Assembly (NCBI GenBank): GCA_039796155.1 | Contig: JBDKKJ010000007.1 | Coordinates: forward strand, 1-56,408 | Length of the DNA stretch: 56,408 nt | Reading direction: 5' to 3' | DNA from: Candidatus Parcubacteria bacterium | GTDB taxonomy: Bacteria; Patescibacteriota; Minisyncoccia; Phycocordibacterales; UBA6065 | In this document: positions 46,513 through 52,124 of the stretch, piece by piece | Numbering within the stretch: position 1 is the stretch's first letter | How the letters are laid out: the number at the start of each line of letters is the position of its first letter | Program-made: the position numbers and the translations under genes | Notes under the pieces: model-generated | Databases searched by the model: none | What the model saw: the letters and a program-made list of their open reading frames with translations, nothing else | Told to the model about the DNA's origin: nothing

Positions 46513-46528
46513 AATCTATTATCAGATA

Positions 46529-46557
46529 GGTTCCAACATCGTCCCACACGGCCAACA
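46529..46557 (+). repeat. 29-nt island direct repeat, copy R1
   Basis: GGTTCCAACATCGTCCCACACGGCCAACA (25/29 identity to the consensus). Confidence 0.85.
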
Positions 46558-46628: not shown

Positions 46629-46901
46629 ATGAAAATAATATCAAGCACTTTTTTCGGTCTACTGGTTATTGTAGTAACACTGCTTTTTCTATTCGCTGCA
46701 ATGGGCTTAGGAGGCGGTTTGGGAGGAGCAAATACTGTTGCCTTCTATACAGTTTTGGTATTAGGTGTTCTGAATTTTTCTTTTGCAGTCATTACACCGT
46801 GGTTAAGTAATGCTAAGGACAAAAAGATTGTATATATTTTATGTGCAGTTTCAGTTATTTTACAGGTGCTATCTTTCTTTATCCCTAGCCTGAATTATTA
46901 A
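46629..46901 (+). CDS. hypothetical small membrane protein (cassette ORF)
   Basis: About 90 aa, three hydrophobic helices. The stop is 4 nt before repeat copy R2. Confidence 0.5.
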   Translation: MKIISSTFFGLLVIVVTLLFLFAAMGLGGGLGGANTVAFYTVLVLGVLNFSFAVITPWLSNAKDKKIVYILCAVSVILQVLSFFIPSLNY

Positions 46902-46905
46902 AACG

Positions 46906-46934
46906 GGTTCCAACATCGTCCCAGACCCCCAACA
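46906..46934 (+). repeat. 29-nt island direct repeat, copy R2
   Basis: GGTTCCAACATCGTCCCAGACCCCCAACA; identical to R5. Confidence 0.9.
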
Positions 46935-47089: not shown

Positions 47090-48166
47090 TTAGTCTTTAA
47101 GCCAATACCAATACTGATTTTTCAGATCTTCCGTTAACTCGTAAGTATTTGCATGAGACAAAACACCCAAGTATGACTGCATACTTTGATGTAGATTATT
47201 TTCAGGAATCAGACCTCTCTGGTAGTACAGCATCTTTTTGCGTATATTTCTCAAGACTCTCTTTTTGGTTTTCGCCCGTAACAATCGATAATGCGGAAAT
47301 ATGACATACCCGAGGAAATCTATGCCCTCGTTAAATTTGCGAATGGATATCTTATTCGGATGGAGTTCAAGTTTCAGTCGTTCTCTCAAAAAATCCTGTA
47401 ATTTAGGCAACAATTCTTCGAGGTACTTTCTATCCTCTGATATAATCATGAAATCATCGGTGTATCGTGCGTAATTTTTCACACGAAGCCCATGCTTAAC
47501 AAATTGATCAAACTCGTTCATATAAATATTGGCAAAAATCTGCGAAGTCAGGTTGCCGATGGGCACCCCTTTGCTGTTCGTCGTAAAAAGCGACAGCGTC
47601 TTACTCTCTCTCAAAGTGCCGCACATTCTGTAACTCTCAATAACCTCTTCCAAAAGAGAAATCGTCTTTTGATCTTTAATTTTCTTAATAAGGATATTTT
47701 TCAGTACCTCATGGTCGACGGAGTCAAAAAATTTTCTGACGTCGCATTTCAGGGCGTAGCATGGACGTGTGTTATTTCTACTCGTCGCGCGAAGCATGTT
47801 GACAACTTTCTCCACGCCTTTGTGGGTACCTTTGTCGATACGGCACGAGAACGAATCGTCGATAAATGTCGGCTCAAATATTTTATTCAACACGGCAAAG
47901 GTGGCGTGGTGAAGCACTCTGTCACGAACGACCGCTTTGTGTATCCGCCTGAGTTTAGGATCATGGATCCAAAAGCCTTTATATGGCCCATGCCGATACG
48001 TTTCATTCTTCAGGTCGCGGTACAAGTCAAAAATATTTTGCTCGATATGGAGCTCAAACTCAGCGACATCAGGCTTGTTCCTTTTATCGGACTTGAATAT
48101 CTCCCAAGCCCTGAATAGGGATTTGGGAGATATTATCGACCAATGTAAATCCTTATAAATCTTCAT
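47090..48166 (-). CDS. DGR-type reverse transcriptase
   Basis: 358 aa. RT motifs including the DGR hallmark PIGNLTSQIFANIYM (IGxxxSQ) and catalytic YTDD. It lies adjacent to Avd and the TR. Confidence 0.9.
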   Translation of the reverse strand: MKIYKDLHWSIISPKSLFRAWEIFKSDKRNKPDVAEFELHIEQNIFDLYRDLKNETYRHGPYKGFWIHDPKLRRIHKAVVRDRVLHHATFAVLNKIFEPTFIDDSFSCRIDKGTHKGVEKVVNMLRATSRNNTRPCYALKCDVRKFFDSVDHEVLKNILIKKIKDQKTISLLEEVIESYRMCGTLRESKTLSLFTTNSKGVPIGNLTSQIFANIYMNEFDQFVKHGLRVKNYARYTDDFMIISEDRKYLEELLPKLQDFLRERLKLELHPNKISIRKFNEGIDFLGYVIFPHYRLLRAKTKKRVLRNIRKKMLYYQRGLIPENNLHQSMQSYLGVLSHANTYELTEDLKNQYWYWLKD

Positions 48167-48168
48167 AT

Positions 48169-48519
48169 ATGAATGACTTAGATATACCGATTTTCAAGAA
48201 GAGTTACGATCTCTACAAGGATTTCTATAATCTGCGACTATCCGTTCCCAAGCAAGACCGCTACACGCTCTGGCAAAAGTGCGAAAGCCTGCTTATCGAA
48301 GTCCTGGAAGGAGTCTTGTTTGCCAGCCAACAATCAAAGTTAGAGAAACTGCCGACCCTCGAGAAGACGAGCGTCAAACTTAATTTTCTGCGAGTCTGCA
48401 TCCGCCTCATGAAGGACATCAAGGCGATTGACGCCAAGAAATACATCATCATCGAGGCGAACCTTGATGAGATAGGAAGAATGCTCGGAGGCTGGATTAA
48501 GTCGACGAAAGATCGTTAA
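48169..48519 (+). CDS. avd: four-helix-bundle accessory variability determinant (Avd-like)
   Basis: 116 aa. PKQDRYTLWQK...EIGRMLGGWIK pattern of the four-helix-bundle / 23S-rRNA-IVS protein family used as DGR Avd. Confidence 0.8.
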   Translation: MNDLDIPIFKKSYDLYKDFYNLRLSVPKQDRYTLWQKCESLLIEVLEGVLFASQQSKLEKLPTLEKTSVKLNFLRVCIRLMKDIKAIDAKKYIIIEANLDEIGRMLGGWIKSTKDR

Positions 48520-48521
48520 CA

Positions 48522-48548
48522 GAAACTTCCGCTTTTGGCGGAAGTTTC
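48522..48548. other. 11-bp hairpin immediately 3' of the TR (minus-strand sense)
   Basis: GAAACTTCCGC-TTTTG-GCGGAAGTTTC. No U-tract on either strand, so it is not a canonical terminator. Confidence 0.6.
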
Positions 48549-48568
48549 CTCGGATAGAGCTATGACTG

Positions 48569-48683
48569 CCTGGCGGCCGACAACCCGATGTTGTCGTTGC
48601 GGTTGTCATCCCTGTAGTTGTTGACGTTGAGCCCGTCGGAATCGAAGTTGCCAACGTTGACGCGGTTACCGTCCGAGTCGAGA
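48569..48683 (-). repeat. DGR template repeat (TR), 115 nt
   Basis: The reverse complement aligns without gaps to 49838-49952. It has 29 adenines, many in AAC codons. Confidence 0.9.
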
Positions 48684-48724
48684 TATTGCCCGCTTCCATC
48701 TGTGTCACCGAGAATCGAGGTTTA

Positions 48725-48925
48725 CTACCTTTGCAGGTCTATATCCTCCCATCTCTGAATTTTATTCGGAAGCAACTTCCATGCAATTGAGCCTGAAAGC
48801 ATCTCCTCTAGAAGCAGGCAAGAAGTTCTCTCTATCCTTAATCGCACTCTGCCGTGATCCGTAAACCACTGGCACTCTGGCGAATCTTCAGGTGAGATAT
48901 CTCGCGAACTTGAACCGTAATCCAA
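48725..48925 (-). CDS. questionable 66-aa ORF upstream of the TR
   Basis: ORF only. It lies between the leftward promoter candidate and the TR; no family recognised. Confidence 0.2.
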   Translation of the reverse strand: MDYGSSSRDISPEDSPECQWFTDHGRVRLRIERTSCLLLEEMLSGSIAWKLLPNKIQRWEDIDLQR

Positions 48926-48947
48926 GCTACATTAGCAAGATACAGCT

Positions 48948-48977
48948 AGTATACTGCACCAATTGACAGATTGCCAA
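48948..48977 (-). promoter_or_regulatory. candidate sigma70-like promoter reading leftward (toward TR/RT)
   Basis: On the minus strand: TTGGCA (48977-48972), 18-nt spacer, TATACT (48953-48948). Confidence 0.4.
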
Positions 48978-48982
48978 AATCA

Positions 48983-49011
48983 TTGACAAATAGTAATTTC
49001 TTCGCTATACT
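48983..49011 (+). promoter_or_regulatory. candidate sigma70-like promoter of the DGR target gene
   Basis: TTGACA (48983-48988), 17-nt spacer, TATACT (49006-49011); 110 nt upstream of the ATG at 49122. Confidence 0.55.
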
Positions 49012-49121
49012 ACACAAGCAGTTCTTTGATAGAGAATCACTGTTGAGACGAGCTTCTTGGGCCTTATTTAGGGCTTAAAAAACTCGTCTCAACTGAGGCA
49101 AGTCGTACTTCTCGGAATCGT

Positions 49122-49961
49122 ATGTCCGAAACACCAGTCGTCCAAAGTAAATATAACTGCGGGCTAACAGTGGAGATACATACCATGAAATGGACAGAAA
49201 TACCGTCAGGTCAAGTCAACGGGGCATTCCAACGCCTCATGAACGCATTCGGCGATCGTGCCGATACGATCGTGGAAAGAATCAATGCAGATGAAGCAGT
49301 CGCACCCCGCGTGGCAACGCTGTGTTGCCACAACGGTTATGAACCATCGGTCTCGCAGGCGAAAGCAGGCGAGGTCATGGGCAAAAACTTCTTCGGCATC
49401 GAGGAAGTCCAAAAGCACTTCGGTGTCACTCTCTCGAAACGGCATCTCGCCTACATGGCCGAGATTCCGTTCTCCGAGGAAGTGCTCAGCGAATGTAAGG
49501 ACACTCACGTCCTTGTTGCTTACGCTCCCATGGCAATTGTCGCCGTTCGGGCAAAAACCGCGAGTGTCAAACTCCCGCCAAAGCATCGTATGTTCTACCA
49601 GCAGGACTGGTATGACAACAACGAGGTGGGAAACGGTGCGGGTGCGCTCGAATGGCACCTTGTCCGCAAGACCTCGATTCCCGATTCGAAGTCGAAGACT
49701 TGGCAGGAGCAACAGGATTTGCTTGATCGTAAGATCGACGAAACCCCTGAAGCGAATGTCATGGTCTATACGATCATCGGACACTTCCTAGCCACTGGCG
49801 AACGCCTGTTCGAGAAGGAGTATGTGCGCACGCGCACTCTCGACTCGTTCGGTGACCGCGTCAACGTTGGCTACTTCGATTCCGGCGGGCTCTTCGTCTA
49901 CTTCTACAGGGGTGACGACCGCAGCGACAACATCGGGTTGTCGGCCGCCAGGAAGCAGTGA
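49122..49961 (+). CDS. DGR target (variable) protein with C-terminal VR
   Basis: 279 aa. The last roughly 40 codons are the VR. The C-terminus ...GYFDSGGLFVYFYRGDDRSDNIGLSAARKQ resembles the variable end of C-type-lectin-fold DGR targets. No signal peptide is seen. Confidence 0.85.
   Translation: MSETPVVQSKYNCGLTVEIHTMKWTEIPSGQVNGAFQRLMNAFGDRADTIVERINADEAVAPRVATLCCHNGYEPSVSQAKAGEVMGKNFFGIEEVQKHFGVTLSKRHLAYMAEIPFSEEVLSECKDTHVLVAYAPMAIVAVRAKTASVKLPPKHRMFYQQDWYDNNEVGNGAGALEWHLVRKTSIPDSKSKTWQEQQDLLDRKIDETPEANVMVYTIIGHFLATGERLFEKEYVRTRTLDSFGDRVNVGYFDSGGLFVYFYRGDDRSDNIGLSAARKQ
49838..49952 (+). repeat. DGR variable repeat (VR), 115 nt
   Basis: 102/115 identity to the TR. 12 of the 13 differences lie at TR adenines (7 A-to-T, 5 A-to-G). 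Confidence 0.9.
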
Positions 49962-49999
49962 GTCTTGATCCCTTGAGGACTTAATCCTCTTGAATCCTT

Positions 50000-50036
50000 G
50001 AGGCTTCGCGAATTTTTTTCGCGAAGCCTCTTTTTA
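50000..50036 (+). terminator. strong intrinsic terminator downstream of the VR
   Basis: 13-bp stem GAGGCTTCGCGAA/TTCGCGAAGCCTC with a 5-nt T loop, followed by TTTTTAT. Confidence 0.75.
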
Positions 50037-50604: not shown

Positions 50605-50651
50605 ACGTGCTTGTAATTATGTCATAAAAACATTCACCACAATCAAACCAA

Positions 50652-50680
50652 GGTTCCAACATCGTCCCAACCCCCTGACA
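50652..50680 (+). repeat. 29-nt island direct repeat, copy R3
   Basis: GGTTCCAACATCGTCCCAACCCCCTGACA. The first 18 nt are identical to the consensus; the 3' part diverges. Confidence 0.8.
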
Positions 50681-51524: not shown

Positions 51525-51675
51525 TAGTAAGAGGTTTTTCCTCTGTGTTTTGGTTGTTATTGTTGATAAAAGTGACTATTATATTATACCATATAATTCA
51601 TATATATGCAACACCTACATATTAGTTCAATAGTTTGGAATTACGCTCCAAATTCCAGAATATAATTTAAAATAA

Positions 51676-51703
51676 GCTCCAACATCGTCCCAGACGCCCA
51701 ACA
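51676..51703 (+). repeat. 29-nt island direct repeat, copy R4
   Basis: GCTCCAACATCGTCCCAGACGCCCAACA (one deletion and two substitutions versus the consensus). Confidence 0.8.
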
Positions 51704-52074: not shown

Positions 52075-52095
52075 GCCTTAGCTTTGGTTAATTAG

Positions 52096-52124
52096 GGTTC
52101 CAACATCGTCCCAGACCCCCAACA
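52096..52124 (+). repeat. 29-nt island direct repeat, copy R5
   Basis: GGTTCCAACATCGTCCCAGACCCCCAACA; identical to R2 (30 nt including the preceding G). Confidence 0.9.

Follow-up and report, generated by a model that had tools for sequence, protein, structure and literature searches.

The 115-nt repeat pair described here raises two questions: is it the TR/VR pair of a DGR, and how did a single G to T change come to stand among differences that otherwise all fall on TR adenines? The pair lies in a 56,408-nt contig of a Candidatus Parcubacteria bacterium (JBDKKJ010000007.1), the whole of which was analysed and is called the window here. Our answer, which we hold with a probability of about 0.85, is that positions 47090–50030 are a complete DGR of a CPR/Patescibacteria bacterium, that its VR is templated by the TR, and that the G to T change was derived on the VR side.

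TR and VR Differ at Adenines

The repeats and the two bases in question are located as follows:

48569–48683, minus strand: TR, 115 nt with 29 adenines (repeat search, alignment, A-masked pattern)
49838–49952, plus strand: VR, residues 219–256 of the target (hypervariable in the family over the homologous 40 residues)
48673, minus strand: donor base, G in the TR codon GAC (GAY in most family TRs)
49848, plus strand: VR T in codon TTC, Phe222 (same base in three assemblies)

Recomputing the alignment of the reverse complement of 48569–48683 with 49838–49952 gave the same figures as the earlier note, 102 identities in 115 positions and no gap, and a separate repeat search recovered the two copies as an inverted repeat of 118 nt (88%). 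The TR is composed of 29 A, 36 C, 31 G and 19 T. Seven of the 13 differences are A to T, five are A to G, none is A to C and one is G to T, so that the previous count of 12 substituted adenines out of 29, with TR G 48673/VR T 49848 as the sole non-adenine difference, was reproduced. Substitutions spread evenly over the TR bases would have spoken against adenine specificity; at least 12 of 13 differences on 29 of the 115 positions corresponds to P = 9.3e-8 (hypergeometric), and the adenine bias stands.

Codon by codon, the VR differs from the TR by D to F, N to D, N to Y, D to G, N to F, N to Y, N to F, D to G, N to D and N to S, which agrees with the N to D/Y/F/S and D to G/F changes reported before. 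None of the 12 adenine changes is at a third codon position, and of the 1253 family adenines counted, 1208 lie at positions 1 or 2. AAC makes up seven of the ten changed TR codons. Adenines in the family are replaced by G in 55%, T in 31% and C in 14% of cases; under this spectrum the lack of A to C among 12 changes is not unusual (P = 0.17). Immediately 5′ of the alignment, TR A 48684 faces VR C 49837, which resembles a 13th adenine change but was rejected as such: the same A/C is common to the closest relatives (loci L009, L010 and L088) and therefore marks a fixed edge of the homology. The A-masked TR pattern matched only the TR and the VR in the 56-kb window (0 matches expected by chance), which also disposes of a second target or an extra VR there.

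TRs are strongly conserved across the family, and VRs are hypervariable between homologues. Where the TR of the window differs at non-adenine positions from those of L010 (5 differences), L009 (20), L088 (18) and others, every one of these lineage-specific differences is mirrored in the VR of the same locus. Transfer from TR to VR after the lineages split has clearly been one-way, and the two repeats evolve in concert.

RT, Avd and the Arrangement of the Locus

The protein-coding genes of the element, with the predicted signals of the target gene, are:

47090–48166, minus strand: reverse transcriptase gene, 358 aa (Pfam RVT_1 1e-25; IGNLTSQ and YTDD box)
48169–48519, plus strand: avd accessory gene, 116 aa (Pfam bAvd 5.6e-17; NCBIfam DivGenRetAVD 81.7 bits)
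48983–49011, plus strand: promoter-like TTGACA-17-TATACT of the target gene (consensus match; conserved upstream region)
49185–49961, plus strand: gene of the target (variable protein), 258 aa (ORF with the VR at its end; GGAGA 9 nt before ATG 49185)
49964–50001, plus strand: conserved element following the VR, a small hairpin among four CTTGA motifs (conserved across loci)
50000–50030, plus strand: predicted target-gene terminator hairpin, 13-bp stem followed by a T run (sequence)

DGR RTs are defined by the motif [I/V/L]GxxxSQ in place of QGxxxSP (PMC7826257), and the translated RT has IGNLTSQ together with an intact YTDD. Its best NCBIfam match is a group II intron RT, under the cut-off of that model. 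The Avd protein passes the DivGenRetAVD equivalog cut-off of 80 bits. Position and strand of avd relative to TR and RT are constant in 44 of 44 related loci in which both genes were found. These loci, like the window, have the order TR-(avd)-RT, named architecture B3 and present in 90% of CPR DGRs (PMC5758913), with avd on the opposite strand.

The CPR B3 DGRs described by Wu et al. 2018 (PMC5758913) resemble the present locus in their Patescibacteria hosts, the single target without known domains, the C-terminal VR, and non-A-to-N differences that are not rare. The window differs from them in that its module is inverted and upstream of the target. This inverted arrangement of the RNA-TR-avd-RT module was also seen in L010, L062 and L096–L098; in 39 relatives the module lies downstream of the target on the same strand. 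The inversion breakpoint is near 48941–48962.

The DGR reading of the earlier note is borne out: the locus combines a DGR-type RT and Avd with an adenine-biased TR/VR pair, one-way transfer, a VR at the end of a coding target and a GC-rich 3′ boundary that is fixed. IMG/VR held no relatives of the locus, on which ground a phage origin was rejected.

The 3′ Boundary of the VR and the Target Protein

TR and VR diverge (TR C, VR A) right after an identical GC-rich stretch of 28 nt, and nearly all relatives diverge at the same point. The identity of the last 27 nt noted earlier is thus real, but the stretch after the last difference measures 28 nt and the string quoted for it 25 nt. Some DGRs are known in which IMH and IMH* do not differ (PMC5758913). 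Here, in contrast to the Bordetella phage BPP-1 DGR, the identity of TR and VR extends as far as the boundary, so that whatever distinguishes IMH from IMH*, if anything, has to be located downstream. The element at 49964–50001 contains a small hairpin, GAGGA-CTTAA-TCCTC (49975–49989), which may have a role in homing. Compensatory changes affect the two inner pairs of its stem in 5–6 of 26 loci. Such an inverted repeat follows the VR and is absent 3′ of the TR, where a different hairpin is found.

The VR covers residues 219–256 of the 258-aa ORF. An alternative upstream ATG (49122) would give 279 aa; most of the full-length homologues listed have about 250–263 aa. The region 48962–49124 upstream of the gene is conserved in relatives. 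The target belongs to a large Pfam-less Patescibacteria family of at least 847 homologues: Pfam gave no match for it or for any of 108 family members, NCBIfam gave none for the target, and neither did a PDB sequence profile search. An AF2 model built with a 108-sequence alignment reached pLDDT 91 (with 28 sequences, the VR half was poor, pLDDT <50). In a Foldseek search of the PDB with the target, weak matches to EgtB, FGE, PvdO and TvpA (2y3c) dominated; E was at least 0.077 and TM about 0.3, none being significant, and BFVD yielded no significant match. The target resembles C-type lectin/FGE-like variable proteins (Mtd, TvpA) in its C-terminal variable stretch of about 38 residues and its AAC-rich TR, but differs from them in these non-significant structural matches and in having no Pfam or PDB sequence match.

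Structured RNA around the TR

On the TR strand, the repeat is flanked by the following predicted RNA elements:

48948–48977, minus strand: promoter-like TTGGCA-18-TATACT just upstream of the RNA domain (consensus match only)
48685–48940, minus strand: structured 5′ domain of the TR RNA, about 256 nt, 10 helices (conservation, covariation)
48830–48837, minus strand: GGATAGAG, in a part of the 5′ domain left unpaired, partner of 48552–48559 (duplex permutation test)
48552–48568, minus strand: motif CAGTCATAGCTCTATCC directly 3′ of the TR (conserved across loci)
48521–48549, minus strand: 11-bp hairpin 3′ of the TR, candidate Avd-binding stem-loop (conserved)

The 5′ domain has 73–88% DNA identity across the family and accompanies the TR in both module arrangements. 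Compensatory changes were seen in 41 of the 69 pairs of its model; 97% of cells were paired, versus 39–48% when the partners were slid, and the observed values were reached in 0 of 500 shuffles. The MFE is −85.4 (z −3.2). An ORF within the domain (48725–48925, minus strand) was rejected as a gene, being unconserved in relatives with length differences that are not multiples of 3. A −10-like box is found at the equivalent place upstream of the RNA domain in relatives.

The first part of the motif 3′ of the TR, CTCTATCC (48552–48559), is predicted to pair with 48830–48837, in a duplex that brackets the TR. The partners covary, and own partners fit better than swapped ones (permutation p<0.0005). 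In the hairpin at 48521–48549, nine of the 11 pairs have compensatory changes (RNAalifold, 36 loci). Stem-loops just 3′ of the TR are known from 207 of 278 Avd-type DGRs (10.1101/2023.10.23.563531), and the hairpin may bind Avd.

A search of the whole window with Rfam returned a tRNA-Gln only and nothing at the DGR. Rfam contains the RT-associated RNA motifs RT-1 to RT-19, RT-10 being located between TR and brt in BPP-1 (Weinberg et al. 2017, PMC5737381). Like these, the RNA described here is a structured RNA beside an RT, presumed to serve cDNA synthesis, but 48400–50100 matches no Rfam 15 family even at E ≤ 1. We found one RNA analysis of B3 DGRs in the literature, which reaches at most 40 nt upstream of the TR.

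The BPP-1 DGR (mtd, avd, TR, brt) is like that of the window in several respects. Both have an RT with Avd and adenine-specific changes at about half of the TR adenines; the 3′ boundary is GC-rich and fixed, the VR is followed by an inverted repeat and the TR by a stem-loop, and sequences on either side of the TR join in a duplex. Unlike it, the DGR of the window is cellular and not of a phage, has avd on the other strand and a target that is not a tail fibre, and carries the 256-nt structured domain where BPP-1 has avd coding sequence.

Non-Adenine Differences in the Family

A single non-adenine difference between TR and VR is by itself ordinary. Non-A-to-N differences were catalogued in 86 of 372 DGRs (23%; Wu et al. 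2018, PMC5758913), and the exception seen here is of this known and fairly common type. The published explanations include RT misincorporation at non-adenine bases (PMC5758913; PMC7826257), which was missing from the earlier note.

To place such changes we surveyed 48 TR/VR pairs of the same family. Pairs with more than three non-adenine mismatches were excluded; these were mostly VR-VR paralogue pairs of duplicated targets, with one likely chimera (L106) and two (L023 and L112) that could not be placed in frame. VRs differed at 733 of 1388 TR adenines (52.8%) and at 10 of 4019 non-adenine bases (0.25%). These rates resemble those of BPP-1 bRT-Avd in vitro, with 51.6% for A, 1.6% for G, 0.5% for U and 0.3% for C (PMC7826257).

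Going beyond the catalogue (PMC5758913), the survey locates the changes: half of them are at the G of GAN codons (5/259, versus 5/3760 at other non-adenine sites; Fisher P = 2e-4), and none is at a silent third position (0/920 third positions of adenine-free codons). All but one of the ten lie in adenine-containing, variable codons. Among non-adenine bases 5′ of an adenine, 5/315 at first codon positions were changed and 0/536 at third positions (P = 0.007); for G 5′ of an adenine at third positions the count is 0/58, from few sites. A tandem-error idea, in which non-adenine changes accompany a mutated adenine beside them, was dropped since no enrichment was seen within adenine-containing codons (4/507 versus 4/488 elsewhere). 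The placement of non-adenine changes in the family is non-random, as judged from ten events. Its cause is either RT error beside template adenines or selection at binding-site codons, two possibilities that these counts do not separate. We did not find the concentration at the G of GAN or the absence from silent sites stated in the DGR literature examined.

Origin of the G to T Exception

The exception changes GAC to TTC (Asp to Phe) in a hypervariable codon. The TR codon at this site is GAY in 34 of 39 tallied family TRs and, by eye, in eight of the nine untallied ones; the closest relatives have GAC (L009 and L088) and GAT (L010). Comparison with related genomes carrying the same DGR, as proposed earlier, thus shows a TR G shared by the closest relatives, and the homologous G was changed independently (GAC to AGC) in L108, a locus of an unrelated lineage. 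On these sequences the TR G is ancestral, and hence the T arose on the VR side.

Based on the BPP-1 DGR, the following course of events can be proposed. A minus-strand transcript would contain the 256-nt structured 5′ domain, the 115-nt TR, the short conserved motif and the hairpin. RT and Avd would copy the TR into cDNA, misincorporating opposite adenines, and the cDNA would take the place of the VR, at the 3′ end of the gene for the 258-aa target. The current VR would be the product of one such transfer, with 12 of 29 adenines changed. Most probably, at about even odds, the G to T change was made in this same retrohoming event, by misincorporation opposite the G that RT copied right after the adjoining adenine.

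The earlier note had thought of a point mutation after homing, which we consider possible though rather unlikely: a spontaneous VR change that postdates the last retrohoming and persisted through drift, or through selection for a useful Phe in the binding site. Point mutation is among the published explanations for non-A-to-N differences (PMC5758913), and all assemblies spanning the VR (three) have the same VR. That nine of ten family events lie in adenine-containing variable codons is what selection predicts, and the restriction to first codon positions of changes 5′ of an adenine points the same way. Pure drift fits poorly with 0/920 silent third positions against 5/259 at the G of GAN, so that a point mutation would demand positive selection precisely at the base adjoining a changed adenine. 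In addition, an RT error of about 0.3–1.6% per non-adenine site and event (PMC7826257), taken over 86 sites, would be a far readier source than background mutation.

Four other sequencing runs yielded five contigs that match the window with 100% identity, two of them covering the VR. The VR is spanned by and identical in three assemblies (JGI, SRR35181981 and SRR35626827), consensus contigs of one clone in which minority variants are invisible, and across them no ongoing VR diversification was seen. As the contigs from other runs represent the same clone, they give no independent view of activity or of variability at 49848.

An origin at the 5′ junction of cDNA integration, as a transfer limit or a junction-repair error, is improbable. 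Errors of integration or resolution are a published possibility (PMC5758913), the G to T change is the 5′-most difference of this VR, and three of the ten family events are within the first 12 nt of the approximately 119-nt homology; this crowding towards the 5′ end does not reach significance (about P = 0.07, binomial estimate). The suggestion that the base marks the 5′ limit of transfer does not hold: identity runs ten bases further 5′, and several relatives carry a change at the next adenine 5′ (that of TCTCGAC), which places the site within the transferred stretch. Moreover, a G donor cannot yield T by crossover alone.

More improbable still is a change on the TR side, in which the VR was copied from a TR with AAC at this codon (AAC to TTC) and the TR codon became GAC afterwards. 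AAC to TTC does occur at two other codons of the same VR, and five family TRs have AAY at this codon. However, these TRs come from distant loci (44–58% target identity), the closest relatives and nearly all other TRs have G, and G to A followed by A to G would be needed in one lineage; parsimony on the TRs of relatives led us to reject it. Finally, an assembly or sequencing artefact at 49848, such as a consensus mixing TR and VR reads, is hardly credible: assemblers do struggle with the repeat (L002 ends exactly at 48683 and L003 at 49018), but the T is present in three separate assemblies and blending with the TR would give G.

Discussion

Taken alone, the TR/VR alignment describes one more DGR of a CPR genome, with a deviation known from about a quarter of DGRs. 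Two by-products of the analysis are worth more, the placement pattern of non-adenine changes and the RNA model around the TR. The conserved 10-helix RNA 5′ of the TR, absent from Rfam, is more interesting than the G to T change itself. A TR within an RNA of about 440 nt, whose 5′ domain would pair across the TR, gives B3, the dominant DGR architecture in CPR, a concrete model of its RNA.

The concentration of non-adenine changes at the G of GAY codons may be a real property of the enzyme or the mark of selection at binding-site residues. We put forward tentatively that the G to T change is not noise and that diversification in this family regularly takes in one base past the adenine, namely the G of GAY codons. 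If this is true, Asp codons of the form GAY could change to Phe, Tyr, Asn, Ser and His, none of which is within their reach when adenine alone is mutated; and if RT makes these changes, the enzyme of this family would have a second, context-dependent error mode.

TR/VR alignment in the window

Recomputing the alignment of the reverse complement of positions 48569–48683 with 49838–49952 gave 102 identities over 115 gap-free positions, and a repeat search of the window separately recovered the same pair as a 118 nt inverted repeat. The template repeat (TR, minus-strand copy) has 29 adenines, 12 of which are changed in the variable repeat (VR, plus-strand copy; 7 A to T, 5 A to G, no A to C). The one remaining mismatch pairs G in the TR (48673) with T in the VR (49848). 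By chance, 29 of 115 positions would collect 12 or more of 13 differences with P = 9.3e-8. All adenine changes fall at codon positions 1 or 2, and ten codons are changed. The earlier note had described this alignment, the adenine counts, the ten codons and the single non-adenine exception, and all were reproduced; the identical 3′ end that it reported is also present, but is 28 nt long, not 27. That no A became C is unremarkable (P = 0.17), since just 14% of adenine changes across the family are to C. An adenine-masked TR pattern matched the 56-kb window twice, at the TR and the VR, with no match expected by chance. Just beyond the alignment, A (48684) in the TR faces C (49837) in the VR; this A/C pair marks the fixed edge of homology, because the three closest relatives carry the same A/C.

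A complete DGR with an inverted B3 module

The TR and VR are surrounded by a complete diversity-generating retroelement (DGR):

47090–48166, minus strand: reverse transcriptase (RT) ORF; RVT_1 (1e-25), DGR signature IGNLTSQ, YTDD box
48169–48519, plus strand: ORF for the accessory variability determinant (Avd); Pfam bAvd match, NCBIfam equivalog DivGenRetAVD above cut-off
from ATG 49185, plus strand: target ORF, 258 aa; VR at residues 219–256, GGAGA 9 nt upstream of the ATG

RT and TR share one strand. The ATG at 49185 is probably the true target start, and 258 aa fits the range of most full-length homologues among the matches listed (250–263 aa). The target gene has, over 49100–49999, a G+C content of about 55%, versus 37–42% in most neighbouring genes including RT. 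The target family comprises more than 847 proteins of Patescibacteria (Paceibacterota and others), whose last ~40 residues are hypervariable; sequence searches of Pfam, NCBIfam and PDB gave no match. An AlphaFold model from 108 homologues (pLDDT 91) is helical in its N-terminal half and rich in beta structure in the C-terminal part, where the VR lies. No significant match to this model came from Foldseek, and the weak top matches were nearly all FGE-like/C-type-lectin-like proteins (EgtB, SenA, FGE, PvdO), together with the DGR variable protein TvpA. These matches hint at the usual DGR variable-protein fold for the target without establishing it. Since no relative was found among IMG/VR viral contigs and the genes of the window, along with a tRNA-Gln, are of ordinary cellular kinds, the element is chromosomal.

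We retrieved 159 related loci and located TR, avd and RT in them. The gene order in the window is the TR-(avd)-RT order of class B3, reported for 90% of DGRs of the candidate phyla radiation (CPR; Wu et al. 2018, PMC5758913). The module lies downstream of the target and on its strand in 39 loci. In the window, as in five of the related loci (L010, L062, L096–L098), the whole RNA-TR-avd-RT module is inverted and upstream of the target. DNA comparison placed the inversion breakpoint near 48941–48962, and in the window the inversion puts two promoter-like sites back to back:

48948–48977, minus strand: TTGGCA-18-TATACT, just upstream of the structured 5′ domain described below
48983–49011, plus strand: TTGACA-17-TATACT, for the target gene

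Five relatives (L039, L043, L045, L050, L122) represent this DGR family in a multi-target form, with two target genes each. The two VRs of such a locus mismatch at numerous positions, and each is closed by the VR-type downstream element. In the window, the VR is followed by:

49964–50001: four CTTGA motifs (49964, 49972, 49989, 49997) 3′ of the VR, around a small conserved hairpin (49975–49989)
50000–50030: terminator hairpin, downstream of the motifs

Even where target proteins share only ~50% identity, the DNA of the CTTGA motifs is conserved. Motifs and hairpin occupy the position expected for the inverted repeat by which target recognition is assisted in other DGRs. An intergenic 37-nt repeat (core GGTTCCAACATCGTCCCA) has five same-strand copies within 5.6 kb around the DGR (46521–46557, 46898–46934, 50644–50680, 51667–51703, 52088–52124). 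It was found nowhere else in the window and only in contigs of the same strain, and is absent from the DGR loci of relatives.

Repeated transfer from TR to VR

In 48 TR/VR pairs of the family, 733 of 1388 TR adenines differ (52.8%) versus 10 of 4019 other bases (0.25%). In vitro, the RT of Bordetella phage BPP-1 has similar rates (PMC7826257): 51.6% at A, 0.5% at U, 0.3% at C and 1.6% at G. Comparison of the window's TR with those of its relatives shows 5 to 20 non-adenine differences, and at every one of them the VR of each lineage matches its own TR. One example is an AGG specific to the window, in place of TGG in relatives. Such concerted change requires that the TR was copied to the VR repeatedly, and in this direction only, once the lineages had diverged. 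The AGG (Arg; region of TR 48634–48636 / VR 49908–49910) follows a TAC codon and replaces a conserved scaffold Trp of close relatives; the T to A change in the TR, copied to the VR, gains one mutable adenine.

Four other sequencing runs yielded contigs with 100% identity to the window, and the two of these that span the VR have the same VR. Three assemblies agree on T at 49848, but they represent the same clone and hence are not independent evidence. Contigs of two other runs stop at or near the TR (L002 at window position 48683, L003 at 49018), which suggests either that the assembly graph branches at the TR/VR repeat or that the VR varies among reads.

Origin of the G to T difference

The earlier note had proposed comparing related genomes with the same DGR, and this gave the direction of the change. 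Of the family TRs, 34 of 39 tallied and, by eye, 8 of 9 others have a GAY codon here, among them the three closest relatives; this makes G the ancestral base and places the change to T in the VR. The survey of 48 TR/VR pairs yielded 10 non-adenine differences within the homology. In five of these the G of a GAN codon is changed (GAC to TTC in the window, to AGC in L108, CAC in L014, TAC in L030 and AAC in L107), and the L108 change affects the same homologous nucleotide as in the window. The rate at the G of GAN codons is 5 of 259 sites, compared with 5 of 3760 at non-adenine sites elsewhere (Fisher P = 2e-4). Non-A-to-N differences have been recorded in 86 DGRs out of a set of 372, CPR elements often having more than one, and have been ascribed to atypical incorporation, integration or resolution errors, or independent mutation (Wu et al., PMC5758913). 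The earlier note is thus correct in its description, and what it describes is an ordinary DGR whose one deviation is of a common kind.

The origin of G to T is narrowed to two readings, RT error or a selected point mutation. We prefer, on the grounds of rates and with a probability of roughly one half, misincorporation by RT at the base copied directly after a template adenine. G is the least faithful non-adenine base of the Bordetella phage enzyme in vitro. A simple tandem-error model is disfavoured, as non-adenine changes are no commoner beside mutated (4/507) than beside unchanged adenines (4/488).

A point mutation in the VR, kept by selection at binding-site codons, is possible but less probable than RT error. 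It would agree with the observation that non-adenine bases 5′ of an adenine change at codon position 1 (5/315) and never at position 3 (0/536; P = 0.007), but position-3 bases are mostly C, and G before A is too rare there to test (0/58). The post-homing point mutation considered earlier survives in this selected form, whereas neutral drift fits poorly: 9 of the 10 events affect codons with an adenine, and no event affects the 920 third positions of codons that lack adenine, the sites expected to gather neutral mutations (contrasts P = 0.013 and P = 5e-4). The suggestion that the site marks the 5′ limit of cDNA transfer was not supported, with ten identical bases further 5′ and the next 5′ adenine mutated in several relatives. 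A crossover with a G donor could not yield T, and a TR that was once AAC and then reverted is unparsimonious given GAY in nearly all family TRs.

A structured RNA around the TR

Three elements flank the TR on its strand:

48685–48940, minus strand: structured 5′ domain, 256 nt, ten helices, directly 5′ of the TR
48552–48568, minus strand: conserved motif CAGTCATAGCTCTATCC, directly 3′ of the TR
48521–48549, minus strand: 11-bp hairpin following this motif; 9 pairs with compensatory changes

The 5′ domain is 73–88% identical among loci whose target proteins are only ~50% identical, and stays joined to the TR in both module arrangements. RNAalifold on 30 sequences predicted 10 helices with 69 pairs in all, of which 41 show compensatory changes. 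Of the alignment cells 97% were paired, versus 39–48% with partners slid by 1–3 columns; the covariation score was 0.41 versus ~0.1, and none of 500 shuffles reached the observed values. The window's own sequence folds likewise (z −3.2). A 66-codon ORF overlapping the domain showed no conservation in relatives, and no family of Rfam 15 matched.

Within the 3′ motif, CTCTATCC is complementary to GGATAGAG (48830–48837), a segment left unpaired in the 5′ domain. The partners covary, reading GGATGGAG and CTCCATCC in L029, L034 and L035, and own-locus partners pair better than swapped ones (permutation p < 0.0005). The hairpin resembles the Avd-binding stem-loop 3′ of the TR in the Bordetella phage RNP, and the CTCTATCC/GGATAGAG pairing resembles the duplex linking both TR flanks there. 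For many DGRs, both RNP elements were deduced from sequence reaching 40 nt to the upstream side and 100 nt to the downstream side of the TR (10.1101/2023.10.23.563531); no description of the large 5′ domain was found in the accessible DGR literature. The 5′ domain, the pairing across the TR and the hairpin probably serve CPR B3 DGRs as their RNA scaffold, and this structured RNA and the placement of non-adenine changes each deserve separate study.
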